Source: a virus. Taken from it: 64,000 nucleotides of DNA. Both the position numbers and the translations under genes were made by a program. Positions 18,054 through 37,122 of this stretch are shown one piece after another; the first letter of the stretch is position 1, and the number at the start of each line of letters is the position of its first letter. Location: positions 59,836 through 123,835 of the IMG/VR virus record IMGVR_UViG_3300028920_000040, one strand, 5' to 3'. A model generated the notes under the pieces. It saw nothing but the letters and a program-made list of their open reading frames with translations. It did no database searches and was not told where the DNA came from.

Positions 18054-18061
18054 TATAAATA
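18054..18061 (+). promoter_or_regulatory. T4-type late promoter TATAAATA heading the leader-tagged array
   Basis: exact TATAAATA 38 nt upstream of ATG 18099. Confidence 0.65.
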
Positions 18062-19485: not shown

Positions 19486-19505
19486 GTAATCGATTAGGAG
19501 AAAAA

Positions 19506-20903
19506 ATGAATTTTAGAGAACATTATTTTACTCTTATAGAAAGATTTGGTCTTGACGCAATGTACGTTCCTCCAAAGGATAAGCAGTATCAATTATATGA
19601 CTTCTATGCATTGTCTTTAATTAATCCAAATGCTTTTATGGATGAAGAAGCACAAGACTATTTTAAGCAGGCTAAAGAAACTATCGTTAATCATATCTAT
19701 AATGACTTTATGTATGCTGTATATTTTGCATTAGCGTCTGAACTATATCATACAAATGATGCGTCTGATTTTGAAAGTTTTAATTATAAAAATGAAAAAG
19801 ATAGAGCAGATTTAAAAAAAGAAGTTGGTCTTACCGATAAAGAAATTGATATTCTAGGAAAATTAGGGTCTAATATTCCAAGTAGAAAAGTAAGATATAA
19901 TAAGCTCAAAAAATTACTTTCTCCTGATGAGATGGCTAATATAGCAATAAAAGTTTTTGGAAAACATAAATGGTGGAATTCTGCATATGGCGGCGAAGCA
20001 TGGGCAAATATTGCTAAGGGATATAAAAGATTAATTAATGCAAAAACTATTGGAGATAAAATGGTTGCTATCGATCACGTTTACGATCTTCAACATAATT
20101 CAGATACTGTATTCGATAAGGTACAAGAATATTATAAAGGAGGCGACCTTTATTGGTTAAAGAATGCTCTTGATGATAAGGCACAAATCAAAGAACCTCA
20201 TGTTTATCTAGATAAAACATCTCCTCAATTATTCAGACCCCTTGCATATGCTTTTAAACAGCTATATGGAAAAACTCTTGAATCTTTTAAAACAGAAAAA
20301 GAAGAAAAAATTAAACAAATATTAGGAAAGTATAATGTTGATATTAATGATCCTCTCGTACAAGAATTTTTAAATGCTATTCAACCATTATTAGCCGTTT
20401 ATGAAAAATTAGATAATTATACTAAAACTGAAATTATTAGTATTATTAAAATTATAAAACAGAAAGATTATAATCAATTGAGTGACGATGATACATATGA
20501 TGATTTAAGAGACGCTATAGACACCGAAGAAACATATGATGTTATTGATTATAAAACCGAAGTTAATATTAGAAAAGCAATATCAAAGTTTATTAATAGA
20601 ATAGAAAATTATAAAACAAAACAATTTTCTAATTATCTTATAAAAGCTGGTTCTGAATTATTTGATTATATTATTAAAAATAGTTATAATGCAGATAAAA
20701 TAATGAAGACATATGATAAATTTCTTAAATTGGCCGAAAAAATTTCTACAGCATATAATATAGATTTAATACAAGATATATTTCAGAATATAGTAGAAAA
20801 CATTGAAAACGATAAGATTAAATTTAAAAACGAACAGCAAAAAGAAAAAGCAAAAAAGTTAGTAACAACATTATTAATGGATATCGAAGATTGGGGATTA
20901 TAA
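19506..20903 (+). CDS. tandem paralogue 1 (subtype A) of uncharacterised DHxYDLQHN family
   Basis: MNFREHYFTLIE-RFGLDAMYVPP; YGGEAWANIA; IDHVYDLQHN. Confidence 0.85.
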   Translation: MNFREHYFTLIERFGLDAMYVPPKDKQYQLYDFYALSLINPNAFMDEEAQDYFKQAKETIVNHIYNDFMYAVYFALASELYHTNDASDFESFNYKNEKDRADLKKEVGLTDKEIDILGKLGSNIPSRKVRYNKLKKLLSPDEMANIAIKVFGKHKWWNSAYGGEAWANIAKGYKRLINAKTIGDKMVAIDHVYDLQHNSDTVFDKVQEYYKGGDLYWLKNALDDKAQIKEPHVYLDKTSPQLFRPLAYAFKQLYGKTLESFKTEKEEKIKQILGKYNVDINDPLVQEFLNAIQPLLAVYEKLDNYTKTEIISIIKIIKQKDYNQLSDDDTYDDLRDAIDTEETYDVIDYKTEVNIRKAISKFINRIENYKTKQFSNYLIKAGSELFDYIIKNSYNADKIMKTYDKFLKLAEKISTAYNIDLIQDIFQNIVENIENDKIKFKNEQQKEKAKKLVTTLLMDIEDWGL

Positions 20904-22231
20904 TGAATTTTAGAGAACATTACTTTATAGAAAAGTTTGGTATGGAATCAATTTACACCATACCAAAAGACAAAGAACAACAGCTCTTTGACTTTTATGC
21001 TTTAACAATGTTCAATCCTAATGCATTAATGGATGAAGAAGCCCAGATGTTTTTTTCAGAAGCTAAAGAAAAAATTATTGACAGCCTTCAAAAATCTTTT
21101 ATAGATGCTTTATATACGGCCATTGCTGCTGAACTTACTCATACATTAATGCAGGCTTATCCTTTCTATTATGCATATCGTAATGATCATGACATTAAAT
21201 CAAAAAAATCTAAAGCAGAAGTTGAAGAAAAATTTACTCCTGAAGAAATAAAGGTACTTAAAAACTCTCATAATATTAGATCATATAATTATGATCAAAG
21301 AGCAAATTTCTTTAAAGAAAAAGGATACACTCCTGAAAAATTATATATTCTAGCTAAAAAAGTTTTTGATTTAAATTGGAGTTCTTCATTTGGTGGAAAG
21401 AAATGGAAAGAAATAGCGGTGGGATTAGAAAGATTAATTAATGCAAAATCTATGGGTGATAAAATGGTCGCTATAGATCATGCTTATGATCTTCAACACA
21501 ACAACGATACAGTCTTCAATAAAGTAAAAGAATTCGCTAAGCACGGAAGTTACGAGTGGCTCAAAAGAGCATTGGATTTAAAAGCACAAATTAAAGAGCC
21601 TCATGTTTATCTTGATAATATTTCTTCACAATTATATAGACCAATGGCTTACGCATTAAAACAAATATATGGAAAAACATTGGAAAGTTTTCTAAAACAA
21701 AAAGAAGAAGAAAAACAAAAATTTAAAGAAGAAATTTTAGAAAAGTGGCCAAACATTTTTAATGGAATTCGTCTTGAACACCAGGCAAAGAGATCATCAA
21801 TACAATATAATGTTCCAGTTAGTATATTTATACAATATGATTTTGATAAAAATAAATTAATAGATTCTTTTTATGTTCGACATAGTAACAAATCAATGTT
21901 AAATGATTATAGAAATAGTCCAGATACTATAGAAGTTAAAGTAATAAAACCAGAAGAAGCAAAACAGTTTATAATAAAAAAAGCAACAGACGCAAAAAAA
22001 TACAATTCAAGTGATTATAATAAATTTTTAAAAGGAGCAATTCAAGCAGCTAGGTCAAGAAATTCTTTTATGGCTCTTTATTATAATACATCATATAATA
22101 ATTTTGGATTTTCTAGTATAGGCGATTTTGGATATAATAATGAAAAAGATATAAAACCAGGATTTATAGCACTTGGTAATTATGTAATAATAGCCATTGT
22201 TAATCCAGACGGGAGTATAGATGAAATTTAG
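20903..22231 (+). CDS. tandem paralogue 2 (subtype B)
   Basis: MNFREHYFIE-KFGMESIY; IDHAYDLQHN; start at ATG 20903. Confidence 0.85.
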   Translation: MNFREHYFIEKFGMESIYTIPKDKEQQLFDFYALTMFNPNALMDEEAQMFFSEAKEKIIDSLQKSFIDALYTAIAAELTHTLMQAYPFYYAYRNDHDIKSKKSKAEVEEKFTPEEIKVLKNSHNIRSYNYDQRANFFKEKGYTPEKLYILAKKVFDLNWSSSFGGKKWKEIAVGLERLINAKSMGDKMVAIDHAYDLQHNNDTVFNKVKEFAKHGSYEWLKRALDLKAQIKEPHVYLDNISSQLYRPMAYALKQIYGKTLESFLKQKEEEKQKFKEEILEKWPNIFNGIRLEHQAKRSSIQYNVPVSIFIQYDFDKNKLIDSFYVRHSNKSMLNDYRNSPDTIEVKVIKPEEAKQFIIKKATDAKKYNSSDYNKFLKGAIQAARSRNSFMALYYNTSYNNFGFSSIGDFGYNNEKDIKPGFIALGNYVIIAIVNPDGSIDEI

Positions 22232-23537
22232 AGAACATTATTTTACAGAGAAGTTTGGTATGGAATCTATATATTCTCTGCCAAAAGACAAAGAACAACA
22301 GCTCTTTGACTTTTATGCTTTAACAATGTTCAATCCTAGTGCTTTGATGGACGAAGAAGCCGAAATGTTTTTTAATGAAGCAAAAGAAACAGTAATAAAT
22401 GGTCTTCAAAAATCTTTTATAGATGCTTTATATACAGCCATTGCTGCTGAACTTTTTCATACAAAAGATCAAGCAAAACCATTTCATGAATATGAACATT
22501 CTTTTTCTATAAAAAATAGAAAAAATGCAAAAAGTATTATCGAGTCTCAATTTACTCCAGAAGAAATAGCTTTAATAGATGATATTTCTAATGAATATGA
22601 CTATTCTAGAGGCGAATTGGATTATGATCAAAGAGCAAAAATTTTTAAAGAAGGTGGATATTCTCCTGAAAAATTATATAAATTTGCTAAAAAAGTTTTT
22701 AATCTTGATTGGTATGGTGGATATGGCGGCAAGAAATGGAAACAAATTGCAGATGGATTAGAAAGATTAATAGATTCAAAATCTCTTGGTGATAAAATGG
22801 TCGCTATAGATCATGCTTATGATCTTCAACATAACAACGATACAGTCTTTAATAAAGTAAAAAAATTCGCTAAGCACGGAAGTTATAGTTGGCTTAAGAG
22901 AGCTTTAGATTTAAAAGCCAAAATTAAAGAGCCTCATGTTTATCTTAATAATATTTCTTCACAATTATATAGGCCTCTTGCTTATGCATTTAAAAAACTT
23001 TATAATAAAACTCTTGAAGACTTTACTAGACAACAAGCAGAAAATAGAGAAACAAATAAAAAAAGAGTTTTAGAATTGTGGGCAAAATCAGATGATTTAG
23101 ATTATATTAAAAGACGTATGATTTATTCTTCACTGAGGGATAACTCTAACGTATCATCTTTTGCAAGATATGATAGTGAAAACGATGAGATAATAAATAC
23201 TTTTTATATATCACACGATAATAATGGAATACAAAGATATAGAAACGATCCAGAATATTTTGAATTGGAAACGATAACACCAGAAAAAGCAAAAGAAGAA
23301 GCAGTAAAAATAGCAAATGATGCAAAAAAATTGAAACCACAAAAATATAAAAATGAATTAAAAGATGTACAATATTATGCAAATGTGTTTAATAAAAATG
23401 GTGCAATATACTATGATATAGAAGATGATACTTTTGAAAATACTTTTTATTCTAATGCTTTTATTAATAAAAACCCTGGAGATATATTTAGTTCGACGTT
23501 TGTATTGATGAAAATAGTTACTCCAAAAAAAGATTAA
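22221..23537 (+). CDS. tandem paralogue 3 (subtype B)
   Basis: MKFREHYFTE-KFGMESIY; IDHAYDLQHN. Confidence 0.85.
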   Translation: MKFREHYFTEKFGMESIYSLPKDKEQQLFDFYALTMFNPSALMDEEAEMFFNEAKETVINGLQKSFIDALYTAIAAELFHTKDQAKPFHEYEHSFSIKNRKNAKSIIESQFTPEEIALIDDISNEYDYSRGELDYDQRAKIFKEGGYSPEKLYKFAKKVFNLDWYGGYGGKKWKQIADGLERLIDSKSLGDKMVAIDHAYDLQHNNDTVFNKVKKFAKHGSYSWLKRALDLKAKIKEPHVYLNNISSQLYRPLAYAFKKLYNKTLEDFTRQQAENRETNKKRVLELWAKSDDLDYIKRRMIYSSLRDNSNVSSFARYDSENDEIINTFYISHDNNGIQRYRNDPEYFELETITPEKAKEEAVKIANDAKKLKPQKYKNELKDVQYYANVFNKNGAIYYDIEDDTFENTFYSNAFINKNPGDIFSSTFVLMKIVTPKKD

Positions 23538-23559
23538 ATATAAAATATGGAGAATAATT

Positions 23560-23715
23560 GTGAAAAAAATTAAATCTTATTTAGACGAAAAACTTTTTGG
23601 TGGAAAAAAGTCAGATGTTGAAGTTATTGCTAAGGCAATATCTAAAATAATTAAAGATAAAGCTAAGGATGCGGGAATTGATCCTAAGGAAATACTTCAT
23701 TATATCAAGGTATAA
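23560..23715 (+). CDS. 51-aa leader-like small protein (not in ORF track)
   Basis: GTG start after GGAG; MKKIKSYLDE-KLFGG... Confidence 0.55.
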   Translation: MKKIKSYLDEKLFGGKKSDVEVIAKAISKIIKDKAKDAGIDPKEILHYIKV

Positions 23716-23719
23716 TTAT

Positions 23720-25045
23720 ATGAATTTTAGAGAATATTACTTTGTAGAAAAATTTGGTATGGAATCAATTTATTCTTTACCGGAAGACAAAGAACAACAG
23801 CTCTTTGACTTTTATGCATTGTCATTAATTAATCCTAATGCATTAATGGATGAAGAAGCTCAAATGTTTTTTAATGAAGCAAAAGAAACAGTAATAAATG
23901 GTCTTCAAAAATCTTTTATAGGTGCTTTATATACAGCCGTTGCCGCAGAACTTTTCCATACACAAGCACAAGCAATTCCTTTCTATAAGGCTAAATGGGG
24001 AAGTTCTAAACAAAGAATAAACGCAATAAATAAAATTGAAAAAATTTTTACTCCTGAAGAAATAAAATTAGTAGAAGACATGCGTAATTTTGGTTTAAAG
24101 AGTTATGATAAAAGAGCAAACTTTTTAAAAGAAAAAGGATATACTCCTGAAAAATTATATAAACTAGGACAAAAAATATTTGGTTTATCTTGGTCTTCAG
24201 GATATGGCGGTAAGAAATGGAAGCAGATAGCCGATGCATTAGAAAGACTGATTAATGCAACTTCTCCCGGTGAGAAAATGGTTGCTATAGATCATGCTTA
24301 TGATCTTCAACATAACAACGATACAGTCTTTAATAAAGTAAAAGAGTTTGCAAAACACGGTAGTTATAGTTGGCTTAAGAGAGCTTTAGATTTAAAAGCC
24401 AAAATTAAAGAACCTCATATTTATCTTCAAAATATATCTGCTCAGCTTTATAGACCTCTTGCTTACGCATTAAAACAAATATATGGAAAAACATTAGAAG
24501 ATTTTATAAGACAAAAAGAAGAACAAAAACAAAAAATTATAGATGATATTTTAAAGAATTGGCCAGAAAATGAAAGTCAAAAAGGCGTAGATCAATCTGC
24601 AAAATTTCGTTCGGTTCAAGATAATGCTCCGGTTAGTATATTTATAAAATATGATTTTGATGAACACAAAATAATCGATGATTCTTTTGTTTCACATCTT
24701 CGCGACAATCTTTTAAAATCTTATAAAAATAGCGATGATTATATCGAAATCAAAATAATAAATCCTAAAGATGCAAAGAAAGAAATACTTGAAAAAGCAA
24801 AATTAGCAAGAGAAAAATCTGATGATTATAATGAGCAGATAGAAGTGACACAACAAGACGCAGAACAAACAAAAATGGAATATATAATTTATTATGATCC
24901 ATTGGAAAAATATGAAAATTTTGGTCATACTGGAAGAAAAAATTTAAGATCGGAGTATCAAAGAAGTAAACCAGGCGATATGATATATGATAGATATGTA
25001 TTAATGGCAATTATTAAATCGGATGGAAGTGTAGATGAACTTTAA
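23720..25045 (+). CDS. tandem paralogue 4 (subtype B)
   Basis: MNFREYYFVE-KFGMESIY; start reassigned to ATG 23720. Confidence 0.85.
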   Translation: MNFREYYFVEKFGMESIYSLPEDKEQQLFDFYALSLINPNALMDEEAQMFFNEAKETVINGLQKSFIGALYTAVAAELFHTQAQAIPFYKAKWGSSKQRINAINKIEKIFTPEEIKLVEDMRNFGLKSYDKRANFLKEKGYTPEKLYKLGQKIFGLSWSSGYGGKKWKQIADALERLINATSPGEKMVAIDHAYDLQHNNDTVFNKVKEFAKHGSYSWLKRALDLKAKIKEPHIYLQNISAQLYRPLAYALKQIYGKTLEDFIRQKEEQKQKIIDDILKNWPENESQKGVDQSAKFRSVQDNAPVSIFIKYDFDEHKIIDDSFVSHLRDNLLKSYKNSDDYIEIKIINPKDAKKEILEKAKLAREKSDDYNEQIEVTQQDAEQTKMEYIIYYDPLEKYENFGHTGRKNLRSEYQRSKPGDMIYDRYVLMAIIKSDGSVDEL

Positions 25046-26186
25046 AGAATACTATAATTTAAACGAAAGATTTGGTCTTGATGCGATGTACGTTCCTCCA
25101 AAGGATAAGCAGTATCAATTATATGACTTCTATGCATTATCATTAATTAATCCAAATGCTTTTATGGATGAAGAAGCTAAGGATTATTTTAAACAAGCCA
25201 AAGAATCAATCATAGATGCAACATATAAAGACTTTGTTAATGCTTTATTCTTTTCTATTGCATCAGAGATTTTTCATATGGAAGACTCTGCATACTTTTC
25301 TCGATTGAATCGAAAAGATATAAAAGATTTTTATAATCTTACTGATAAAGAAATGAAATTTGTAGAAAAAATGTTTGAAGACAACAGTGCAAAATCTAGA
25401 GAAGAAAGAAATAAAATAGTAAGACATGAATTTTCCCCACAAGAACTTGCTAACTTTGCAACGAAAATATTTGCTGGTAATCCAAAAGCATCTCACGAAG
25501 TTGGAGAAAATGATATGTGGGAAGAAGGGTATGGTGGAAAAGCATGGTGGAATATTGCTAAAGGATATAATAGACTGCTTAATGCAAAATCCATACCAGA
25601 TAAAATGGTTGCTATAGATCATGTATATGATTTACAACACAACTCTAATACTGTATTTGATAAGGTACGAGATTATTATAAGAGCGGGTATTCTTGGCTA
25701 AAAGATTCATTAGACGATAAAGCACAAATTAAAGACCCACACGTTTATATTGATAAAACATCTCCTCAATTGTTTAGACCTTTAGCTTACGCTTTTAAAC
25801 AGTTATATGGAAAGACTATTGAATCTTTTAAAAAAGAACAATCAGAAAAATATGAAAAAGATATTATAGAGTTTATGGATAAAAACGGAATTGATCATTC
25901 GCTTTCGTTTTTAGTTGATGGTTTTTTTGACGCACTAGAATTTTTAAATAAATATAAAACAGAAATGGGACTTTCAAAAGAATGGATTGAAAATCGAAAA
26001 TTTAGGTTTAAATATAGTTTAATAGATCAAAATCAAAACAATATAGAAGGTGGTATAAACTTTATAATAGATTTAATTGAACAACATGTTAATATGGCTA
26101 ATATACCATCGTCAGAATCAAAGATAATTATTGATAAATTAGAAGATATTATTAATAAGTTATCAAATTTAAATTATTTTAAATAA
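25035..26186 (+). CDS. tandem paralogue 5 (subtype A)
   Basis: MNFKEYYNLNE-RFGLDAMY; IDHVYDLQHN. Confidence 0.85.
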   Translation: MNFKEYYNLNERFGLDAMYVPPKDKQYQLYDFYALSLINPNAFMDEEAKDYFKQAKESIIDATYKDFVNALFFSIASEIFHMEDSAYFSRLNRKDIKDFYNLTDKEMKFVEKMFEDNSAKSREERNKIVRHEFSPQELANFATKIFAGNPKASHEVGENDMWEEGYGGKAWWNIAKGYNRLLNAKSIPDKMVAIDHVYDLQHNSNTVFDKVRDYYKSGYSWLKDSLDDKAQIKDPHVYIDKTSPQLFRPLAYAFKQLYGKTIESFKKEQSEKYEKDIIEFMDKNGIDHSLSFLVDGFFDALEFLNKYKTEMGLSKEWIENRKFRFKYSLIDQNQNNIEGGINFIIDLIEQHVNMANIPSSESKIIIDKLEDIINKLSNLNYFK

Positions 26187-26207
26187 TAAAATTAAAGGTA
26201 TAATTAT

Positions 26208-27371
26208 ATGAATTTTAGAGAACATTACTTTACTCTTTTGGAAAGATTTGGTCTTGATGCCATGTATGTTCCTCCAAAGGATAAGCAGTATCAATTATAT
26301 GACTTCTATGCATTATCATTAATAAATCCATATGCTTTTTTGGATGAAGAAGCACAAGACTATTTTAAGCAGGCTAAAGAAGCAATTATAAATGAGACAT
26401 ATAAAGATTTTATTGACGCAGTATACTTTTCTCTTGCTTCTGAATTATATCATATAGGTGATGCCAGTACATTTCCTGATATGACAGACTCAGAAATAAA
26501 AGATGCAGGAATTAATCTTACTCCTAAAGAAAAAAATACTCTAATTAAATTAAAATATATTGATGACTTCATTGATGATATTCCAGATAGAGTAACAAGA
26601 AATGATGAAATGAGAAATATATTTTCTCCAATAGAAATGGCTAATTTTGCAATAAAAATTTTTCAAGAGAATATATGGGAAGACGGTTTCGGCGGTAAAG
26701 CTTGGCAGGATATTGCTAAGGGATATAAAAGATTAGTTAATGCAAAATCCATGCCAGATAAAATGGTTGCAATTGATCATGTTTACGATCTTCAACATAA
26801 TAATGATACTGTATTTGATAAGGTACAAGAATATTATAACGCCGATAAGGGCGGATATAGATGGTTAAAGAATGCTCTTGATGATAAAGCACGAATTAAA
26901 GAACCTCATGTTTATCTAGATAAAACATCTCCTCAATTATATAGACCTCTTGCATATGCTTTTAAAGAACTTTATGGAAAAACTCTTGAGGGGTTTAAAT
27001 ATGAGCAAGAGCAAGAGCATAAAAAAAGAACATCTGATTATATGAAAAAATGGAATGTCGAACCAGAATATAAAAATATCATTGAAAAATATTTAAATGC
27101 TTTAGATATACTTAAAAAATATAATGTTGTTAATGATTCTTGGGCAAAAGATAGATTAGATATACTTGGTATTAATTTAAAAAATCTAAACATTTTTAAA
27201 GATAAATTAACTACATTAGAGAAAGATCGCACTATTAGAAATATTAATGGTATTATTGAAAGTACAATATCTATGTTTATTATGGAACAAAATGACTCTA
27301 TACCAGATAGAGTAGCACAAGAACAAATTAATATATTAAAATCTTTAGTCTTAGAAATACCAGACGAATAA
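26208..27371 (+). CDS. tandem paralogue 6 (subtype A)
   Basis: MNFREHYFTLLE-RFGLDAMY; IDHVYDLQHN. Confidence 0.85.
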   Translation: MNFREHYFTLLERFGLDAMYVPPKDKQYQLYDFYALSLINPYAFLDEEAQDYFKQAKEAIINETYKDFIDAVYFSLASELYHIGDASTFPDMTDSEIKDAGINLTPKEKNTLIKLKYIDDFIDDIPDRVTRNDEMRNIFSPIEMANFAIKIFQENIWEDGFGGKAWQDIAKGYKRLVNAKSMPDKMVAIDHVYDLQHNNDTVFDKVQEYYNADKGGYRWLKNALDDKARIKEPHVYLDKTSPQLYRPLAYAFKELYGKTLEGFKYEQEQEHKKRTSDYMKKWNVEPEYKNIIEKYLNALDILKKYNVVNDSWAKDRLDILGINLKNLNIFKDKLTTLEKDRTIRNINGIIESTISMFIMEQNDSIPDRVAQEQINILKSLVLEIPDE

Positions 27372-27385
27372 ATTGGAGATGTAAT

Positions 27386-28918
27386 ATGAATTTTAGAGAA
27401 CACTACTATAAAGACGGTAGATTTATGATGCCGATCTGGTATGACATTGCAACTATTAATGAAGATGGTTGTATTGAGATGTCTATACCTCATCATTTCT
27501 TTCCTGTACTTGTTGAGAATAAAGTTATTAGACTTCGTATAAAAGATCAAGAATTTAATAACATGGACGAGGCTATTCAATATCACGATAGTCTTATGGA
27601 AAAGAAAGGATCAAAAACAAAGAGTGGTGTAGTGTGGGTAGACTCTAAAGGTAATAAAAGAAGCTTTGAAGTAGTTGCTGACAATATTAAAATAGGTGCT
27701 GACACGATTATTCTTAATATGTCTACTGCTCATAAGTGTATGTCTGCTATGCTTGGTATGTGTCCTTTGGGCGGGAAGTGTTATGCAATTTCTAAAGAAA
27801 AAAGATTTGACGCCGCTTTAGCTGGAGATAAAAGACAGGAAGAACAATGGTCCTGTATGACTCCCGAAGCTATTGCACAAGGTATTAAAGACCTTGCCGC
27901 GGCCGATCCCGGTATTAAATATGTAAGATTAAATGAAGCTGGCGAATTTAGAAATTTACCAAAAGGAAAAGAACTTCTTTCCAAGATGGATAAACAGGCA
28001 CAAGGACAAGTTGCTAAGGCCGCTTGGGCAGATGTTGATGATATTTCCAAGTTAAAAAAGATTGCTTCATTAGTTCCCGAATTAAAATTTTATACATATA
28101 CGCATAGAAAAGATTTACAGGAAGAACTAAAAGGACTTGGAAAAAATATTGTTATTAATGGATCGGGATTCATGGTAGATAATGCGTTCATGCCTATTGA
28201 ACTTAATGAATATCTTCCTATTATTGATGGTATTCTTGCTAACAGATATAAAGTTGTTAATGGAGAAAAAGTTTCTCCTAACAAGGCAACAGAGTGTATT
28301 GGAGACTGTAGAGTATGTGATAAATGCAAAGTTGCAAGAGAAATGAATATCTATCTTCCTATTCATGGTGCTGGTACAGAAAAACAAAAAGCATTGGATA
28401 AAATTAAGAAAAAAGTTATTGGAAATCCTGCTTTTAATAAAATATTAATGGCTGATATTACAGACGATGAAAAGGTTGAACAATTGCTTGATATAGTTGG
28501 AATAGAAGATAAAGAAATGATTAATAAACTTAAACCTCTTGTAAGACAAAGGAAAGGATTCTTTAAGAAACTTCTCAATTCAGAAAAATCAAAAGTAGAT
28601 TTTATTAGTGCAATTGCTTCATATATAGAATCAGACGACGAACCAACAGCCGCCGAAGTTGCAAAAGAACCTTCTCAATTAGAAAAACAAAAAGCATTAG
28701 CCGCTTCTGTTGACGCTCTTATGGGAAGACTAAGATCAAATCTTGAGGCAGCGAGATCAAAAGGACAGACAACCGGTGCAAAGAAATGGCAGAATTTTAT
28801 AAAGACAATAGATAATATTATAGACAAAGCCAGGTCTGGCGAAGATATTAAACCTACTGGTGCAATTGCAAAAGAACTTGGAAAAGATATCAAAAGAACT
28901 TTTAAGGGAGTTTCATAA
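27386..28918 (+). CDS. leader-tagged Cys-rich Gp88-like protein
   Basis: C-x6-CP-x4-CYA, VRLNEAGEF, FYTYT and CIGDCRVCDKC motifs. Confidence 0.55.
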   Translation: MNFREHYYKDGRFMMPIWYDIATINEDGCIEMSIPHHFFPVLVENKVIRLRIKDQEFNNMDEAIQYHDSLMEKKGSKTKSGVVWVDSKGNKRSFEVVADNIKIGADTIILNMSTAHKCMSAMLGMCPLGGKCYAISKEKRFDAALAGDKRQEEQWSCMTPEAIAQGIKDLAAADPGIKYVRLNEAGEFRNLPKGKELLSKMDKQAQGQVAKAAWADVDDISKLKKIASLVPELKFYTYTHRKDLQEELKGLGKNIVINGSGFMVDNAFMPIELNEYLPIIDGILANRYKVVNGEKVSPNKATECIGDCRVCDKCKVAREMNIYLPIHGAGTEKQKALDKIKKKVIGNPAFNKILMADITDDEKVEQLLDIVGIEDKEMINKLKPLVRQRKGFFKKLLNSEKSKVDFISAIASYIESDDEPTAAEVAKEPSQLEKQKALAASVDALMGRLRSNLEAARSKGQTTGAKKWQNFIKTIDNIIDKARSGEDIKPTGAIAKELGKDIKRTFKGVS

Positions 28919-29340
28919 TGTCATTTAAAGATTATTTAAAGAAAAAATTAAATGAAGGCAAATATGATAATACTAATTTAGCCGATCCAAATAGTTATTA
29001 TAAAGTAATAGACTCCTTTGATGTATTTGTAAAAACCGGGTCAAGTCATGCTAATACTTATTATGGAAGTGGAGAAATTCTTAAGTCTGTTTGGAAGAAA
29101 ATGTCAGCAGAACCCGGATATGAAATTCATAATCTCATGGGAGGTACATATATAATTCCAACAGATACGGACGACTTGGTTGCATGGAAAGTTTTAATAA
29201 AAGAACCAGAGTTTGCTCCTTTTGTAAAAAAGTATTATCCAGACCAACAGGTATTTCCTCTTGATAAATTAGAACAAATATCTAAAGAAGAAGCATTATC
29301 AGGAGTTGATTATATTGATAAAATGGAGATTACAAAATGA
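28918..29340 (+). CDS. leader-tagged hypothetical protein
   Basis: MSFKDYLKKKLNE. Confidence 0.7.
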   Translation: MSFKDYLKKKLNEGKYDNTNLADPNSYYKVIDSFDVFVKTGSSHANTYYGSGEILKSVWKKMSAEPGYEIHNLMGGTYIIPTDTDDLVAWKVLIKEPEFAPFVKKYYPDQQVFPLDKLEQISKEEALSGVDYIDKMEITK

Positions 29341-29915
29341 AATTTGCTATGTTCTACGAACAGGAAATTGACGACTGGCGTGAGAGAAAAGTGTGGCACA
29401 TCACACCAACAGGCCAAAGAAATCATGTTAAGATAAAAAGTCTTTCTCCAGAAGAACAAGAAAAATATAAGCCGGCTTTACTCGATCTTCATGTTAAAAA
29501 GAAAAAGAAAAGTGCTGAAAATAAAAATCCTGAGAAAAAGGAAAAGGAGAAAAAAGCTTCAGCCGGAGAAATTTTAGACCCGGACCTTCTAGATTTTTAT
29601 TATATTATAAATAGTCCTGAAGATATCGATAAGATAGAAAAAGGAAAATTAATTAAGGCTACTGATCTTTCAAGTAAAGCAATAGAATGGTCTGGCGACG
29701 ATAAATACATAGTTAGTGTATCAAATGTTCCTATTAAGGCTGTTGTGCTTTATAAGAATGATGAAGGAGAAATGGTACATTTTCCTGAGAATATGAAGAC
29801 GCACGACAAATATGAATTTATTAAGTTTCAAGAAAACGACGAGTTTCTTTTAAACTTATTTCCATTTTTAGAACAAATAACAATTAAACTTTCAGATAAG
29901 GAAGAAAAAAAATGA
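29337..29915 (+). CDS. leader-tagged hypothetical protein
   Basis: MKFAMFYEQE. Confidence 0.65.
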   Translation: MKFAMFYEQEIDDWRERKVWHITPTGQRNHVKIKSLSPEEQEKYKPALLDLHVKKKKKSAENKNPEKKEKEKKASAGEILDPDLLDFYYIINSPEDIDKIEKGKLIKATDLSSKAIEWSGDDKYIVSVSNVPIKAVVLYKNDEGEMVHFPENMKTHDKYEFIKFQENDEFLLNLFPFLEQITIKLSDKEEKK

Positions 29916-30121
29916 GCTTAAAAAATTTTCTTATTCAAAAATTAAATGAAGATGATGGCATACCAAGACCACCAACAGAAAGTGAAAAAGGTTCTATGCA
30001 AGCATTATTTAATACTTGGCGTAATATAGGAAGAGGTCTAGCAGATGATCACATGCCTCTTGATATTGTAGAAACAGTTGTAAGATATTTAGAAGATTGT
30101 GGTTATATTAAAGGAGAATAA
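29912..30121 (+). CDS. leader-tagged small protein
   Basis: MSLKNFLIQKLNE. Confidence 0.65.
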   Translation: MSLKNFLIQKLNEDDGIPRPPTESEKGSMQALFNTWRNIGRGLADDHMPLDIVETVVRYLEDCGYIKGE

Positions 30122-30122
30122 A

Positions 30123-30398
30123 ATGAATAGCAAATCTTTTCAGCAGTATTTAAACGAAGACATTTATGCAAATGCACTTAGAAAAAAATTAACCCCAGAA
30201 GAAATTAAAAGGATTGACAGTTTTGTTGATAGTGAAGGAGAAGAGTGGGACGATCTTGAAGGCGATCTTTATGATAAACTCATGGATTTCTTTGCTGATG
30301 AAATGCCATATGGTGTTATGAAAGCAAGAACTGGTGATCCTATGGAATGGATGTACGATAAATTCATATCAATGGGATTTGGAACAAGAGTAAAATAA
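30123..30398 (+). CDS. leader-tagged small acidic protein
   Basis: MNSKSFQQYLNE; EMPYGVMKARTGDP; AGGAG RBS before ATG 30123. Confidence 0.7.
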   Translation: MNSKSFQQYLNEDIYANALRKKLTPEEIKRIDSFVDSEGEEWDDLEGDLYDKLMDFFADEMPYGVMKARTGDPMEWMYDKFISMGFGTRVK

Positions 30399-30399
30399 T

Positions 30400-30963
30400 A
30401 TGACTTTCAAAGATTTTTATCTTGACGAAAAGATGGCGAGGTGGAACCTACCTAAAAAGAAATGGGTATCTTTACCATTGGAAGAACTTAATGATGATAT
30501 GAAACAACTTCTTTGGAGAATGTATTCGGATTCATATAGTCGTCAAGGACTTGCTTTGAATACAAAAAATATTAATGAATTGGTTGATAAATATAAAGTT
30601 TCCTGGTTCATTGATGTTGATACAGATACTACACCAGAAGCATTTATAATTTATAGAGAATCACCAGTAGGCAATAAAATTGCTCTTTTAGGAACAGACG
30701 ATAACCGTCTTTCAAAAAGACTTCTTGTAAGAAAGTTAATTTCTCTTTTAAGAAAGCCAGGTTGGTATATAGAAGCCTCCCATAAGATTGCAGACATTAT
30801 TGAGAATAAGGGTGGCAAATGGATTGACGACGAAGAAAAGGTTAAAAAGATTCTTGCTCCTGCGGAAATAGATGAATGGCTTGGTGATGGAAGATATAAA
30901 AGAACACTTAAAGGAACAAATATAGAAGTTACAAAAAGACTCTATGGTAATCCAAGAGGATAA
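30400..30963 (+). CDS. leader-tagged hypothetical protein
   Basis: MTFKDFYLDE. Confidence 0.7.
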   Translation: MTFKDFYLDEKMARWNLPKKKWVSLPLEELNDDMKQLLWRMYSDSYSRQGLALNTKNINELVDKYKVSWFIDVDTDTTPEAFIIYRESPVGNKIALLGTDDNRLSKRLLVRKLISLLRKPGWYIEASHKIADIIENKGGKWIDDEEKVKKILAPAEIDEWLGDGRYKRTLKGTNIEVTKRLYGNPRG

Positions 30964-30972
30964 GGAGTAGAT

Positions 30973-31239
30973 ATGAAATATCAAGATTATTTGACAAAAC
31001 TATTAAAAGAACAATCAAAAGAAGAAACTAAAATTAATGAGCTTGAAGAAGAAATTTCTGATTTGATTTGGAGATATGATCCTGAAGGAGAGGATAATTT
31101 TTTTGATGACGACTTAGATAAAATCAAAAAGATTAAAAATCCAAAATCAAAAATTAAAGCACTTGAAAGATTAATTTCAGATATCAAATGGCGATATGAT
31201 CCTGAAGGGGAAGACGAAAATAATTTTTTTGATGATTAA
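30973..31239 (+). CDS. leader-tagged protein with internal duplication
   Basis: MKYQDYLTKLLKE; ISD-x-x-WRYDPEGED...NFFDD twice. Confidence 0.7.
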   Translation: MKYQDYLTKLLKEQSKEETKINELEEEISDLIWRYDPEGEDNFFDDDLDKIKKIKNPKSKIKALERLISDIKWRYDPEGEDENNFFDD

Positions 31240-31259
31240 ATATAGTAAAGAAAAATATA

Positions 31260-31388
31260 ATGTCATTTAAAAAATATTATAATACAGATATAAATTATAA
31301 AATAAATTTAGAAAATGCTCAACGATTATATGGAAATTTAGTTCCTTGGGAGTTAGATAAAAAAGTTGCTAATAAATTAAGAGGATGA
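31260..31388 (+). CDS. 42-aa leader-like ORF (not in ORF track)
   Basis: MSFKKYYNTD... Confidence 0.45.
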   Translation: MSFKKYYNTDINYKINLENAQRLYGNLVPWELDKKVANKLRG

Positions 31389-31404
31389 TGAAAGGAGAAT
31401 TGTT

Positions 31405-31614
31405 ATGAATTTTGTTAAAAAGTTTTTTAAGAAATTGGCTAAAAAAATTCTTATTAAAAAGATTGAAGACGAGAAATTTCAAGAAGAAATTACTAAGAAG
31501 ATTAGAGAAAAGATTGAAATTCCTAATGTAGATGAGAAAGAAGAAGAAAAATTTGTCAATCAGATTTATGATGCATTACAGGAATTGCTTGTAGGTATTG
31601 TAGAGGATATTTAA
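31405..31614 (+). CDS. hypothetical protein
   Basis: AGGAG RBS; 69 aa. Confidence 0.6.
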   Translation: MNFVKKFFKKLAKKILIKKIEDEKFQEEITKKIREKIEIPNVDEKEEEKFVNQIYDALQELLVGIVEDI

Positions 31615-31616
31615 TA

Positions 31617-32018
31617 ATGTCATTTAAAGCTTATTTAAAAGAAAGAGTATTACTTGAAGGTATTAAACCTATAAAGAATGCTGTTATGAAAAGAACTCAT
31701 AAGATTGTTAATGCTTTAAATGATTCTGATGAAGAACAGAAACTTAGATGGAATGTCGGTAAGATAGATTTTGGTGGAGTTCCTACAGAATTTCTTTTTA
31801 CTACTGCAGATATAAATGGTAAAGACTATACTTTCTTTTCATATAATGCAGGCGGTGGATCAAGCATTGTTGCATGGAATTATATAACTCCAAGTTCTTC
31901 TCCCTCTTTTGATGGAACTGAAGGACAGTTACCAGCAACAGATAAATATCAAGACGATCTTTCGGATGATGATTTAGAAGAAATTAAAAAAGTGTTTGAA
32001 AAAATAAAGAGCAAATAA
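31617..32018 (+). CDS. leader-tagged hypothetical protein
   Basis: MSFKAYLKERVLLE. Confidence 0.7.
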   Translation: MSFKAYLKERVLLEGIKPIKNAVMKRTHKIVNALNDSDEEQKLRWNVGKIDFGGVPTEFLFTTADINGKDYTFFSYNAGGGSSIVAWNYITPSSSPSFDGTEGQLPATDKYQDDLSDDDLEEIKKVFEKIKSK

Positions 32019-32069
32019 AATGAAGTTTGAGGAATTTTACATGAAAGAAAATAAAAAGGAGAATCAAAA

Positions 32070-32441
32070 ATGAGCTTTAAAAAGTATTTAAATGAAAAAA
32101 ATCATTTAAAAGAATCCAGATTTTATAAGAGTCAAAAAGTTATATATAAAGACGAGCCATATATTATAACTAAAACTATTGCGCCGCCCGAGGGACATGG
32201 TTGGTATCATAGTGAACTATATGTCATAATTCAACCAGAAGCTGGCGGTGAAGAAATTAAAGTAGATACTGATGAGCTAACTCCTATTGAATCAGATGAT
32301 AAAGATTTATTATCTAAAAAGGAATTAGTCAAAAAAATATCTTCATTGGCTGCCAAATCAAGATATGAGTTAGAAAAAAAATCATTAGGTATTGATATAG
32401 ACATGATTAATTTTAATGAACTTATGAGTATGATGAAATAA
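32070..32441 (+). CDS. leader-tagged hypothetical protein
   Basis: MSFKKYLNE...LKE. Confidence 0.7.
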   Translation: MSFKKYLNEKNHLKESRFYKSQKVIYKDEPYIITKTIAPPEGHGWYHSELYVIIQPEAGGEEIKVDTDELTPIESDDKDLLSKKELVKKISSLAAKSRYELEKKSLGIDIDMINFNELMSMMK

Positions 32442-32445
32442 TATT

Positions 32446-32598
32446 ATGAACTTTAAAGACCATTATTTAAAAGAAGCTGGTGAGAAAAATGATATATTAT
32501 ATCATACCACCCTTGCTGCGACCGTCCCAAAGATATTAGAAGACGGAATAATTTATCCAACACCAGAAACATTTAAGGCATTAGCACAAAGACATTAA
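32446..32598 (+). pseudogene. 50-aa leader-tagged ORF, possibly a truncated ADP-ribosyltransferase-like fragment
   Basis: MNFKDHYLKE then LYHTT...VPKILEDGIIYP; TAA overlaps the next ATG. Confidence 0.4.
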
Positions 32599-34037
32599 TG
32601 AGATTCTCAACATTTTATACAACACACTTCTTACTTGAAGCTGGTACCTTCTCCGATTGGAAAGGCTACGTGGAGAGAACTCCCGAGCTTAAAAATGCGG
32701 TAGAAGTAATGCAGAAGATAGATGCGAAAGGAAAAGACATTCGCAGCTATGTTGTGGGTGGTGCTGTTCGTGATATCGTTATGGGTAGAGATTTTAATGA
32801 TGTTGATATCGCAACCAATCTTCCTATATCAGAAATCGAAAAGATGTTCAAGACTCATGATATTGGAAAGAATAAAGACTTTGGTATTGTTGTTGTTGAT
32901 TACAAAGGCGATGTATTTGAAATTGCAAACTTCCGTCAGGATGGTGCATACCTTGATGGTCGCAGACCAGAAGATGTAAAGATCGTTATGAGTTTCGAAG
33001 ACGATGCCGGCCGCAGAGACTTTACTGTCAATGCAATGGGTATCGACAAAGACGGAAATGTTATAGACTTCTTTGACGGAAAGAAAGATATCAAAGACAA
33101 AGTAATTAAAACTGTTGGTGATCCTAATAAAAGATTCGCAGAAGATTATTTAAGAATGTTAAGAGCCATTCGTTTTGGTTCTAAACTTGGTTTCCGTATT
33201 GACGATGATACCATGAAGGCTATCAAATCCAAATCGCATAAGATAAAAGATATTGCTGTCGAAAGAGTTATGAAAGAAGTCATTAAGATGGCAGAACAGG
33301 AAGGATCAAAGTTTGCAGATGCAATCATAACATTGAAAGATGCAGGACTTCTTCAATATATCTTTCCTGAAATTATAGAAATGGATTCTTTCGAACATTC
33401 AGTAGAACATCATCCAGAAGGAAATGTTCTTCAACATACATTGGCCGCACTTAAATCAAGCAATAGTAAAGACCCATTGGTTAATCTTTCTATTCTGTTT
33501 CATGATGTGGGCAAACTAAAGACACATGAAGTAGATGAAAAAGGTCTGCATAGATATTTTGGTCATGCTGAAGAGGCTAGAGAAATCATTGAGAATCTTG
33601 CAAAGAGACTTAAGCTCGACAATGAAACCAAGAATGCAATGCTATATTCAGCAATCAATCATATGAAGTTCCACGACTTCCTGAAGATGAGCAACTCCAA
33701 GATAATGAGTTTGATGGGAGATGATAACTGGGATTTACTTTATCAAGTTGCATTGGCCGATGCTAAGGCTCGTGGAGAGGCATTTGATGAGGAAGAATGG
33801 AAAAAGATTACTGATAAGATAGATGATCTTACCGCCAAATATAAATCCAAAAAGGCTATAGATAATATAAGAAAGATAGTTAATGGCAGAATGGTCATGG
33901 ACTTATTGAATATGAAAGGTGGTCCTGAGCTTGGTAGAATTATAAATACTACTATTGAATGGATATTGGACAACAATATAGACCTTAATGATATAGACAA
34001 AATAAAGGAATTTATAATATCGCAAAGGGGCGAATGA
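32598..34037 (+). CDS. cca: CCA-adding tRNA nucleotidyltransferase with HD domain, carrying a leader
   Basis: VGGAVRD, DVDIAT, RRDFTVNAM, EDYLRMLRAIRF, HHPEG and FHDVGK; leader MRFSTFYTTHFLLE. Confidence 0.9.
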   Translation: MRFSTFYTTHFLLEAGTFSDWKGYVERTPELKNAVEVMQKIDAKGKDIRSYVVGGAVRDIVMGRDFNDVDIATNLPISEIEKMFKTHDIGKNKDFGIVVVDYKGDVFEIANFRQDGAYLDGRRPEDVKIVMSFEDDAGRRDFTVNAMGIDKDGNVIDFFDGKKDIKDKVIKTVGDPNKRFAEDYLRMLRAIRFGSKLGFRIDDDTMKAIKSKSHKIKDIAVERVMKEVIKMAEQEGSKFADAIITLKDAGLLQYIFPEIIEMDSFEHSVEHHPEGNVLQHTLAALKSSNSKDPLVNLSILFHDVGKLKTHEVDEKGLHRYFGHAEEAREIIENLAKRLKLDNETKNAMLYSAINHMKFHDFLKMSNSKIMSLMGDDNWDLLYQVALADAKARGEAFDEEEWKKITDKIDDLTAKYKSKKAIDNIRKIVNGRMVMDLLNMKGGPELGRIINTTIEWILDNNIDLNDIDKIKEFIISQRGE

Positions 34038-34294
34038 TGGATAAATTTAAAAAATATCTTGACAAGAAGATCAACGAGGCTTCAAAATATTCTAAGAAAT
34101 CAGATGCATATAAAACAGTTGGTAACATTACAGAAACAATTGAAAATATGGTTAGATGTGTTGAATATGGCGATGGTACTACTGATATGGACGGACAAGT
34201 CCAGTGTGCTAAAGAAATATACGAAAAATTTATAGAACCTCTTGAACAAGAAATAAAACTATTACGTAGTCCATCATCTCCCTCACATGGATGA
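34034..34294 (+). CDS. leader-tagged small protein
   Basis: MDKFKKYLDKKINE. Confidence 0.7.
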   Translation: MMDKFKKYLDKKINEASKYSKKSDAYKTVGNITETIENMVRCVEYGDGTTDMDGQVQCAKEIYEKFIEPLEQEIKLLRSPSSPSHG

Positions 34295-34307
34295 TAAGGA
34301 GTAAACA

Positions 34308-34628
34308 ATGAACAAATTTAAAGACTATCTTGATAATAAACTTAATGAAGATTACGCACAAGACAAATTTAATCTTGCTCTACAAAAAGGCGTAAGTGCA
34401 TTTTGGCAGGCAATGTGGGAAGTTTTTGGTAAGGAAGTCAGTACCGATCCTGTAACAGAAAAAGAATTAAGAGATGCAATGGCCCGTACAATTGCAAGAA
34501 TTCAAAATCCTTTAGACGATGATCCAGAAAAGGATGATGAAGACGATACTAATAAAATTATTAATACTATTTATAAGTCCGATGACGACGATGATGACGA
34601 AGTTATTAGAATAGTCCCTGATAAATAA
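34308..34628 (+). CDS. leader-tagged acidic protein (paralogue of 34652)
   Basis: MNKFKDYLDNKLNE; AFWQAM...LRDAM. Confidence 0.7.
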   Translation: MNKFKDYLDNKLNEDYAQDKFNLALQKGVSAFWQAMWEVFGKEVSTDPVTEKELRDAMARTIARIQNPLDDDPEKDDEDDTNKIINTIYKSDDDDDDEVIRIVPDK

Positions 34629-34651
34629 GAATAAATAATTAGGAGCGAACA

Positions 34652-34978
34652 ATGAACAAATTTAAAGACTATCTTGATAAGAAGATTAATGAAGAATCTT
34701 TACAAGACATAATTGAAAATACTACTGAAAAAGCAGAAATGGCTTTTTGGGCTTCTGTTGAAGAATCTCTTGCCATGGCGAAGGTTCCAGCTAGTATAAT
34801 TCCAACAAAAAAACTTAGAATGGCAATGAAGGATGCTGTTAATTCTTCTGTCTACAGCGACGGTTCCGAAGAATCCCGTGCATTCGAAAAAGAATTTCGT
34901 CCTGAGCCACGCAGACCAAGAGAACCATCACCAGAAGAAAAAGCTTTTGAAAAGGAATTTGGTCCGGAGGAAGTATGA
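34652..34978 (+). CDS. leader-tagged acidic protein (paralogue of 34308)
   Basis: MNKFKDYLDKKINE; AFWASV...LRMAM; AFEKEF twice. Confidence 0.7.
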   Translation: MNKFKDYLDKKINEESLQDIIENTTEKAEMAFWASVEESLAMAKVPASIIPTKKLRMAMKDAVNSSVYSDGSEESRAFEKEFRPEPRRPREPSPEEKAFEKEFGPEEV

Positions 34979-35412
34979 GCATTATAGATCATCTAGATAA
35001 ACATATCAAAGGCCAATTTAATGAAGAGGCAACTCTTACTGAGTTGTTTAAAATTAAAAAGTTTGTCGAATTTATAAAAGATAAAGGCGTTCAAGAATTG
35101 GACGACGAACATCTTGAAGAATTGATTGCAGACTTTCATATTAATTCTGATCTTGTTTATCAAAATATAGAAGACTTCAAAGAAATGTTACGCAATGCCG
35201 GTGTTAGTTATGACGACGATGAAGGATCAACTGGGCCCATAAGAGCATTTGTAATGTTCCTTCAGGACAAGGGAGTAACAGAAGTCAACAATGAAAACTG
35301 GAATGCTTTACTAGATGAATTTGGTATGCTTGACTCTGATGTATTAGATGCCAACTGGGAATTCCTTATGTCTTTATTAGATGAAGTTGGTATAACAAAC
35401 AATTTAAAATAA
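34975..35412 (+). CDS. acidic protein with internal duplication and divergent leader
   Basis: FVEFIKDKGV / FVMFLQDKGV repeat. Confidence 0.65.
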   Translation: MSIIDHLDKHIKGQFNEEATLTELFKIKKFVEFIKDKGVQELDDEHLEELIADFHINSDLVYQNIEDFKEMLRNAGVSYDDDEGSTGPIRAFVMFLQDKGVTEVNNENWNALLDEFGMLDSDVLDANWEFLMSLLDEVGITNNLK

Positions 35413-35430
35413 ATTGAACAAGGAGGCAAT

Positions 35431-35556
35431 ATGTCTTTTTTTGACTATCTATCACAAAATCTTGGAATTGAAATTCATAATGATCAACCAGAAAATATTG
35501 ATACACAAGAAACTGTAACTGAAGAAGAAATCTCTGAGGAAACTAAGGAGGATTAA
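35431..35556 (+). CDS. 41-aa acidic leader-like peptide (not in ORF track)
   Basis: AGGAGG RBS; MSFFDYLSQNLGIE... Confidence 0.6.
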   Translation: MSFFDYLSQNLGIEIHNDQPENIDTQETVTEEEISEETKED

Positions 35557-35879: not shown

Positions 35880-35891
35880 TAGGAGGAACAG

Positions 35892-36215: not shown

Positions 36216-36233
36216 TTTAATAAGGAGTTTATA

Positions 36234-36918: not shown

Positions 36919-36943
36919 CTTCCATACACCCATAATATATATT
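36915..36943 (+). promoter_or_regulatory. sigma70-type promoter
   Basis: TTGACT-N17-TATTCT. Confidence 0.5.
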
Positions 36944-37045
36944 CTATTATATATGGTACTTTTTTGCCGTTTCTGGTCTATTTTAGACACCTATTCCACA
37001 TAACTCATTGATATTAAAGAAGTTAGAAAAAAGTGAAAAAAAAGC

Positions 37046-37074: not shown

Positions 37075-37122
37075 ATAGATGAAGATAAGAGAGAAACGAT
37101 TCAACCAGAAAGACACGATTTT

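Follow-up and report, generated by a model that had tools for sequence, protein, structure and literature searches.

A CCA-adding-type enzyme with an N-terminal leader

The window analyzed here is a stretch of 64,000 nucleotides (nt) covering positions 59,836 to 123,835 of the IMG/VR virus record IMGVR_UViG_3300028920_000040, which make up the latter half of a virus contig (123,835 bp) with a completeness of ~48% according to CheckV. It contains a gene for a CCA-adding-type tRNA nucleotidyltransferase (CCA enzyme), which opens with a short leader peptide and lies in the middle of a co-directional array of open reading frames (ORFs) starting with the same type of leader (Table 1). The leader resembles the capsid targeting sequence (CTS) of bacteriophage T4, and the enzyme is probably loaded into the phage head.

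The CCA ORF has the N-terminus MRFSTFYTTHFLLEAG, and its ATG shares one base with the stop codon of the 50-amino-acid (aa) ORF upstream. Its PHROG match is phrog_2244 (tRNA nucleotidyltransferase, 1.4e-78), and the residues expected in the nucleotidyltransferase head (G54, G55, R58, D59, D68, D70, R139, R140, and D141) are invariant in an alignment of 26 homologs, as are E182, D183, R186, R189, R192, and F193. We take GGxVRD and DxD to be motifs of class II CCA enzymes, and RRD and EDxxR, present as RRDFTVNAM and AEDYLRMLRAIRF, presumably are the base-selection motifs. An AlphaFold2 (AF2) model built on the 26 homologs reached a mean predicted local distance difference test (pLDDT) score of 89.5 and a predicted template modeling (pTM) score of 0.85. 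Its top rows in Foldseek are class II CCA-adding enzymes (6qy6, 2.6e-20; 1miv_A, TM(target) 0.82), and the model shows the head-neck-body-tail fold of these enzymes.

In the C-terminal part, the HD-type residues H272, H280, H302, D303, H323, H355, and D388 are also invariant among the 26 homologs, phrog_6931 matches residues 262–410, and PF01966 is precomputed on many homologs of the enzyme. The models HD (Pfam; 20.7 bits, cut-off 22) and HDIG (21.6 bits, cut-off 27.6) nevertheless score just below their curated thresholds, so that the label "HD domain" is reasonable but falls short of curated-threshold proof. Similarly, the highest-scoring NCBIfam model, the CCA equivalog NF009814, reaches 252.3 bits, below its 290-bit cut-off, and the other nine models listed are further below theirs. 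The protein is therefore best described, from sequence and model, as a CCA-adding-type enzyme with an HD-type part, in which CCA addition and other kinds of tailing are indistinguishable by sequence. The first-pass annotation of this DNA had proposed a class II CCA nucleotidyltransferase with an HD domain; the family assignment stands, and the HD assignment is reasonable at the level of invariant residues, though below the curated cut-offs.

The leader is shared by unrelated proteins of the contig

A regular expression (regex) for the leader, M-x(1,2)-F-x-x-[FYH]-[YFLI], was applied to 179 non-nested ORFs of the 123.8-kb contig and matched 23 of the 179 ORF starts, compared to 6 of 746 internal Met positions. 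Two further ORFs fit at an alternative start, giving a total of 25, of which 21 form the plus-strand array that includes the CCA gene. The leaders end in a hydrophobic-x-Glu motif with the Glu at residue 8–17 in 20 of the 23 leader ORFs, a motif found in 34 of the 156 others (Fisher p = 1.8e-9). At the DNA level the leaders vary considerably: Ser at position 2 is encoded by AGT, AGC, TCA, or TCT, Leu by TTA, CTT, or CTA, and Phe (TTT, TTC), Tyr, Asn, and Glu each use both of their codons. The leader is conserved at the peptide and not at the DNA level. An origin of the leaders as DNA repeats spread by duplication or recombination was considered and rejected, as the synonymous codons include both Ser families and the proteins that carry the leader are unrelated.

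The first-pass annotation noted that the CCA enzyme opens with this leader and lies within the leader array, and both points are borne out. Its leader has aromatic residues three positions apart (F3 and F6) and is closed by the hydrophobic-x-Glu triplet L12-L13-E14, ~5 residues beyond the canonical place. Cleavage is predicted after E14, in which case the mature protein would begin at A15. The model has pLDDT values <50 at residues 1–10 and its fold begins near residue 21; such a disordered start on an otherwise confident model fits a removable propeptide.

Eight leader ORFs of the array are tandem paralogs of 383–510 aa (window 19506–28918, plus strand) with weak similarity to phrog_20946 and one GP88 match. 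A ninth, leaderless paralog is found 25 kb away (53345–54661), and the sole match of the paralogs among phage records is to a 595-kb uncultured phage. The leaderless paralog begins where the leaders of the others end, indicating that the tag is a separable module.

Table 1. Features of the locus. Positions refer to the window unless stated otherwise.
Feature	Position	Strand	Basis
CCA-adding-type tRNA nucleotidyltransferase with HD-type C-terminal part, 479 aa	32598..34037	+	Pfam, NCBIfam, PHROG, AF2, Foldseek
Leader, residues 1–14 (MRFSTFYTTHFLLE); F3/F6 pair, L12-L13-E14 as predicted protease site	32598..32639	+	regex, matrix, pLDDT
Residues 15–28: N-terminal addition of the viral clade, W21 nearly invariant, absent from cellular enzymes	32640..32681	+	alignment
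Nucleotidyltransferase head, residues 51–170	32748..33107	+	PF01743 (PolyA_pol) 9e-31; GGAVRD, DVD, RRD
RNA-binding neck, residues 198–259, after the EDYLRMLRAIRF stretch	33189..33374	+	PF12627 (PolyA_pol_RNAbd) 7e-13
HD-type region, residues 272–388	33411..33761	+	Pfam HD 5e-4; HDIG; invariant H/D residues
Co-directional array of 21 leader ORFs, eight of them 383–510-aa paralogs	18099..35556	+	regex
Upstream 50-aa ORF, canonical leader MNFKDHYLKE followed by AG	32446..32598	+	regex
Downstream 85-aa ORF with leader MDKFKKYLDKKINE	34037..34294	+	N-terminal sequence
Leader protein with polynucleotide-kinase-type P-loop kinase domain, 341 aa	18099..19124	+	Pfam AAA_33 3.9e-21; phrog_505 polynucleotide kinase 3.9e-17
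Leader cytidylyltransferase/NMNAT-like protein, 196 aa	103..693	+	Pfam CTP_transf_like 2e-7; phrog_395 2.2e-15
Leader RNA-ligase-like protein, 424 aa	contig 58212–59486, 349 bases upstream of the window start		structural matches
Leaderless paralog (438 aa) of the eight leader paralogs	53345..54661	+	shared phrog_20946
TATAAATA, motif of the T4 late-promoter type, 45 nt ahead of the gene that opens the array	18054..18061	+	motif scan
Second TATAAATA, inside the CCA gene at its 3' end and 93 nt before the leader gene that follows	33941..33948	+	motif scan

Distribution of the leader among viral and cellular homologs

A protein search returned 120 homologs of the CCA enzyme with 48–66% identity, several of them on contigs of 200–430 kb. 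Among the 115 that count as full-length (at least 30 residues before GGxVRD), at least 80 carry the leader, 76 at the first Met and 4 at an in-frame upstream Met, and the nearest homologs retain an extended form with two hydrophobic residues and a Glu at residues 14–20. A search for related loci with the single CCA protein as query found no relative; with the 26-sequence alignment as query, 434 IMG/VR stretches were found to encode relatives. In the 80 loci kept of these 434 stretches, the strict leader is present on 172 of 2077 ORFs. Neighboring ORFs are tagged in 19.6% of cases beside a tagged CCA enzyme (n = 34 loci) vs. 2.3% beside one with a short, cellular-like start (n = 5; Mann–Whitney p = 0.0013). 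An S77 protease is encoded on each of the five related contigs with a completeness of ≥90%, whether its CCA enzyme is tagged or not, and one relative (G006, 93% complete) combines an untagged CCA enzyme with several clearly tagged ORFs elsewhere.

The situation differs in cellular organisms. In a set of 80 loci from bacterial genomes, 76 of which had an ORF match, the homologs share 28–41% identity with the phage enzyme, and their alignments begin at query residues 19–53 (median 33). All 76 lack the leader, both at the start and at every upstream Met, which answers the refutation check set by the first-pass annotation, namely that cellular orthologs might carry the same N-terminal extension. 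A solved cellular enzyme, 1MIV of Geobacillus, begins near query residue 27, its residue 3 being aligned with residue 29 of the query.

A FastTree phylogeny was calculated from the core only, with the N-terminal extension removed, and comprised 84 rows: 14 cellular sequences, 12 viral loci, and 58 protein matches, the last being the 60 odd-numbered matches minus two that did not pass the filter for length or motif, with even-numbered ones omitted. The 70 viral rows are separated from the 14 closest cellular homologs with 100% local support. At least nine changes of leader state are required on well-supported branches of this quick tree, which does not fix the order of events.

In several related phages (L010 at 8706-9107, L032, L041, L050, L053, and L074), the CCA gene is split, with matches beginning at query residue 121. 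In this form, a short ORF comprises the leader and the head domain up to its position 75, and the remainder is found in a second ORF starting with MKLGP. L051 has a further small ORF between the two parts, with a start that resembles a GIY-YIG endonuclease.

Similarity to the T4 capsid targeting sequence

The CTS of T4 is MKTYQEFIAE (PMC8442874), and a suppressor analysis assigned targeting to residues 4 and 7 and processing to residues 8 and 10 (PMC9026906). These mapped positions coincide with the conserved pattern of the leader, i.e. aromatic, x, x, aromatic, hydrophobic, x, Glu. In the T4 genome (NC_000866; 287 ORFs called as for the contig), the leader regex with Tyr additionally permitted at the first aromatic position matches six ORFs, and those that also have the Glu site are ipII, ipIII, and gp61.1. 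A leader matrix derived from 271 leaders of related phage loci, with T4 and the contig excluded, ranks gp61.1 1st, ipII 2nd, ipIII 4th, and ipI 11th among the 287 T4 ORFs, a ranking in which only positions other than the three anchors set by the training regex are independent. The chance that the three internal proteins all fall within the top 11 of 287 is ~4e-5 (hand-calculated as a draw without replacement). IPI of T4 has a comparable leader of 19 residues, in which MKTFKEF is followed by a spacer and a late I-T-E. The top-scoring T4 protein, gp61.1 (54 aa, NC_000866 18966–19130, minus strand), starts with MKTFKEFIKE and is annotated as hypothetical.

The predicted cleavage site has a further parallel in the capsid protein. 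Residues 50–55 of the gp23 encoded on the contig read FLAE followed by AS, and the T4 counterpart reads FLTE followed by AEIGGD, which we take to be the maturation cut of T4 gp23; the end of the CCA leader, FLLE followed by AG, resembles both sites. Judged by its sequence, the leader behaves as a T4 CTS in every computational test run.

T4-type head machinery coexists with the leader ORFs on the contig, comprising a gp21-type S77 prohead protease (1.8e-23), a gp22-type scaffold (phrog_237), and the gp23 capsid protein (1.1e-85). The capsid protein has ~33% identity to its best matches, which are T4-like cyanophages, and a megablast search of window positions 28000–40000 against phage records returned no DNA match. 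These sequence comparisons place the phage, which is uncultured, on a deep branch of the T4 superfamily. The S77 protease (contig 16456–17124) has the N-terminus MKLIKEYINPGELELIKEE with two hydrophobic-x-Glu sites nearby, reminiscent of the LIE-9 site of T4 gp21 (PMC9026906). A 131-aa leader ORF (contig 13134–13529; MIKFSQYYLVE followed by G) lies within the head-gene module, directly upstream of a 623-aa ORF that precedes the protease, and is a candidate core protein.

Other proteins carrying the leader

The leader proteins of the contig are mutually unrelated according to Pfam and PHROG and include a kinase-type protein, an NMNAT-like protein, the eight paralogs, and many small ORFs. The 424-aa leader protein just upstream of the window has no Pfam or PHROG family, and its model yielded no Foldseek row at E ≤0.001. 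Its weak best matches are all RNA ligases (Foldseek E 1.5e-3 at best), with VIA-align Z values of 8.0 to 6.5 over 175–196 residues; given these E-values above 0.001 and Z values of at most 8.0, we term it RNA-ligase-like and do not count it as a member of the family. It contains an invariant K-x-D-G, which we take to be ligase motif I. The leader is found at the start of 44 of 120 proteins among the matches listed (query included), and in the stand-alone relatives it ends directly before a conserved GGAYGH. Atlas look-alikes of the protein are often fused to a cytidylyltransferase domain. In the contig analyzed here, the kinase-like, ligase-like, NMNAT-like, and CCA/HD proteins are encoded by separate genes, each with its own tag.

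From the related loci, Pfam was searched with 150 of the 188 non-redundant tagged ORFs that have a length of ≥90 aa, and a family at E ≤1e-5 was found for 28 but not for the other 122. The families comprise AAA_33/Zeta-type P-loop kinases (n = 6), ART-PolyVal ADP-ribosyltransferases (n = 3), cREC_REC cyclic-phosphate-processing receivers (n = 2), RimK-type ATP-grasp (n = 2), SprT-like (n = 2), NT5C (n = 2), GNAT (n = 2 alone and one in an ART fusion), RNA_ligase (n = 1), and 2H phosphoesterase (n = 1). PAS, DnaJ, Peptidase_C39, amidoligase, GP88, Toprim, and an N-terminal CCA fragment were found once each.

Expression context

The motif TATAAATA, which we take to be the T4 late-promoter consensus, precedes the first gene of the array and recurs near the end of the CCA gene (Table 1). 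Eleven of its 19 plus-strand copies are located 26–52 nt upstream of ORF starts (binomial p ~1e-11), and most of these ORF-proximal copies precede structural genes, including the scaffold gene. No terminator-like site was found on the plus strand between window positions 17200 and 37100, leaving the array uninterrupted; the scan of this region was at chance level, with 8 sites vs. 7.3 expected, all 8 on the minus strand. A scan of the same region for sigma-70-type promoters was likewise at chance level (100 vs. 103 expected).

A transfer-messenger RNA (tmRNA; window 17682–18028, plus strand) with the tag peptide AEEYSYAMAA is also phage-encoded, its gene immediately preceding the late-promoter-type motif and the first array gene. 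Apart from this tmRNA, no tRNA genes are present in the 124-kb contig, which represents about half of the genome, and this neither helps nor hurts the interpretation of the CCA enzyme given below. A role of the enzyme in maturing phage tRNAs is unsupported in the contig, from which half of the genome is missing. Another late-promoter-type motif, at window position 12425, is located ahead of a 55-aa ORF and precedes a 1532-aa ORF (window 12666–17264, plus strand) that falls in the stretch of the window with the highest G+C content (0.39 vs. ~0.30).

A possible packaged enzyme for tRNA repair at entry

We propose that the CCA enzyme is tagged by a CTS, trimmed by the prohead protease, packaged, and injected as a tRNA repair enzyme, and we lean slightly toward this chain of events holding in its entirety. 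The array would be transcribed late in infection, and the two aromatic residues of the leader would attach the protein to the prohead scaffolding core. The gp21-type S77 protease would then cut after L-L-E14, and the trimmed enzyme would be retained in the head and, on ejection, enter the next cell along with the DNA, where it could restore tRNA 3' CCA ends before any phage protein is made. The HD part may additionally clear 3' phosphate or cyclic-phosphate ends, in line with the activities of the HD domain of Escherichia coli Cca. A cell with disabled tRNAs cannot translate a repair enzyme, a problem that a pre-made enzyme would escape. The existence of defenses that attack the tRNA CCA end, on which the first-pass annotation built its proposal of a packaged tRNA-repair enzyme, is supported by published descriptions: CapRel and toxSAS pyrophosphorylate tRNA, the title of a reference cited in that account naming the CCA end (PMC9712102), and Cas12a3 collaterally cleaves tRNA 3' CCA ends as part of an anti-phage response (PMC13594972). 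The proposal itself gains from a leader that appears CTS-like by sequence and is confined to viral homologs, and it is weakened by those relatives in which the enzyme is untagged.

Several observations indeed weigh against it. The CCA leader is extended and divergent, with its Glu at residue 14 instead of 9–10, and the matrix score of the ORF is 8.0, ranking 13th among the 179 ORFs of the contig; the matrix itself is partly predetermined by its anchors. Thirty-five of the 115 full-length homologs fail the leader regex, many of them resembling degenerate leaders, and in several relatives the CCA enzyme is untagged although the genome encodes tagged proteins. As the same enzyme is untagged in some related phages, packaging would be optional for its use. 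As the protein scores below the NCBIfam equivalog cut-off, the activity could be CCA-, A-, or CC-adding or poly(A) synthesis. The late-promoter-type motif is not over-represented (19 plus-strand copies vs. ~24 expected), only its placement being non-random, and the phage is known from an uncultured, half-complete contig. Finally, the internal proteins of T4 are small, and a two-part enzyme of 55 kDa would have to pass through the tail; large foreign proteins fused to the T4 CTS have been reported to be packaged and delivered (PMC9026906).

The leader might instead be a signal unrelated to the capsid, such as an enhancer of initiation or early elongation or a recognition site for a chaperone or protease, with the enzyme acting only in the cell that produces it. 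Such a signal would suit a tag found on ~25 very different proteins including eight large paralogs, on genes outside the head-gene module, with A/T-rich codons at positions 2–7 and with nothing physical tying the tagged proteins to the head. We consider it unlikely, since the conserved positions are the functionally mapped positions of the T4 CTS, the matrix singles out the T4 internal proteins, and the hydrophobic-x-Glu motif enriched among tagged ORFs would be needless for an initiation enhancer; moreover, the synonymous variation speaks against an RNA-level signal, and the same type of site recurs at the gp23 maturation position. Somewhat less likely again is that the tag does load proheads but the enzyme does not serve as injected tRNA repair, being instead a filler that is degraded or expelled, a protein withdrawn from the cytoplasm late in infection, or an enzyme for other substrates such as phage RNA or DNA ends. 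Most T4 core proteins are cut up and leave the head (PMC8442874, PMC5694885), the CCA protein contains further hydrophobic-x-Glu triplets, and its predicted substrate specificity goes with a score below the curated CCA cut-off. A filler would, however, hardly account for catalytic and HD-type residues that are invariant across the tagged clade or for a complete CCA-enzyme fold including the tRNA-binding body, and the co-tagged proteins of RNA-repair types fit a delivered function better. The lowest probability is assigned to the CCA leader being a decaying relic on an ordinary cytoplasmic enzyme like those of jumbo phages. The replaced canonical Glu at residue 9–10 and the moderate matrix score would agree with decay, the number of leader-state changes in the tree suggests that loss is common, and untagged versions exist. 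Against this, the aromatic pair is retained, the nearest homologs conserve the same extended form with two hydrophobic residues and a Glu, IPI of T4 has a similarly long leader (19 residues) with a late I-T-E, and the CCA gene lies mid-array.

If the packaged CCA enzyme is taken as the starting point, a broader scenario can be formulated, which we put forward tentatively and with more doubt than conviction: a T4-superfamily lineage with genomes of 200–260 kb might pre-load a whole RNA repair kit into its capsid, with one T4-type tag per part. The parts of this kit could be the CCA/HD enzyme and the polynucleotide-kinase-like, RNA-ligase-fold, and NMNAT-like proteins, accompanied by ADP-ribosyltransferases and many unknowns, an assembly that we regard as equally doubtful. 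Such a kit could allow translation to resume in cells that already contain damaged tRNAs, and it would imply that tRNA attack, including attack on the CCA end, is a first-line hazard at entry, e.g. in cells shut down by abortive infection systems.

Implications and comparison with known systems

If the CCA enzyme is indeed packaged, an injected, ready-made tRNA repair enzyme would solve the chicken-and-egg problem of a repair enzyme that cannot be translated, widen the repertoire of virion-delivered counter-defense, and mark the CCA end as an early battleground. The combination of a T4-type tag and a T4-type protease would furthermore provide a simple sequence rule to predict virion cargo in many uncultured phages, and represent a case in which nature makes use of the CTS principle already applied in T4 engineering.

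The CTS principle, the internal proteins, and the packaged Alt enzyme are textbook T4 biology. The system described here shares with the T4 internal proteins a tag of 10–19 residues with aromatics three positions apart and a hydrophobic-x-Glu site, its presence on unrelated proteins, and the gp21/gp22/gp23 machinery. It differs in the cargo, which in T4 is small and includes a restriction inhibitor, whereas here it would be a 55-kDa two-part RNA enzyme, and in the size of the tagged set, which is far larger (~25 ORFs in half a genome) and predicted from sequence. Alt provides a T4 precedent for an enzyme in the head, being an ADP-ribosyltransferase trimmed by gp21 (T4 annotation; PMC5694885, PMC9026906), and relatives of the phage analyzed here tag ART-PolyVal enzymes. 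In contrast to the proposed role of the CCA enzyme, Alt acts on RNA polymerase, and its leader MELITELFDE is not of the internal-protein type.

As for the enzyme itself, cellular class II CCA enzymes (Geobacillus stearothermophilus 1MIV, Planococcus 6QY6) have the same head-neck-body fold (TM(target) 0.76–0.82, 25–27% identity, sequence E-values of 1e-48 to 2.5e-48) and conserved catalytic motifs. They have no leader, whereas the phage enzyme also has HD-type C-terminal residues and belongs to a separate viral clade. The CCA enzymes of jumbo phages are likewise phage-encoded and have been interpreted as countering tRNA attack by the host (Iyer et al. 2021, PMC7824862); they are described there as components of phage RNA repair, and the passages concerned mention no capsid tag or packaging. 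T4 Pnk and Rnl1, which act against the anticodon nuclease PrrC, are similarly a phage RNA-repair set directed against a tRNA-cutting defense according to the T4 annotations, and kinase- and ligase-like proteins are present here as well. However, the T4 enzymes are untagged and made after infection, whereas their counterparts here are tagged. Many head-internal proteins are also cut after Glu by a related protease in the phiKZ-like phage SPN3US (PMC5694885), but the propeptides of these ejection proteins are mostly >100 residues long, the motif is A-x-E, and the capsid belongs to another lineage.

In the literature searched, which left most subscription journals outside its scope, no CTS-tagged or virion-borne CCA enzyme is described. 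To our knowledge, most of the phage proteins known to be injected are inhibitors, enzymes of transcription, or enzymes that modify the host. Compared to these systems, the novelty of the leader-bearing CCA enzyme lies in its class of cargo, the loading device being already known.

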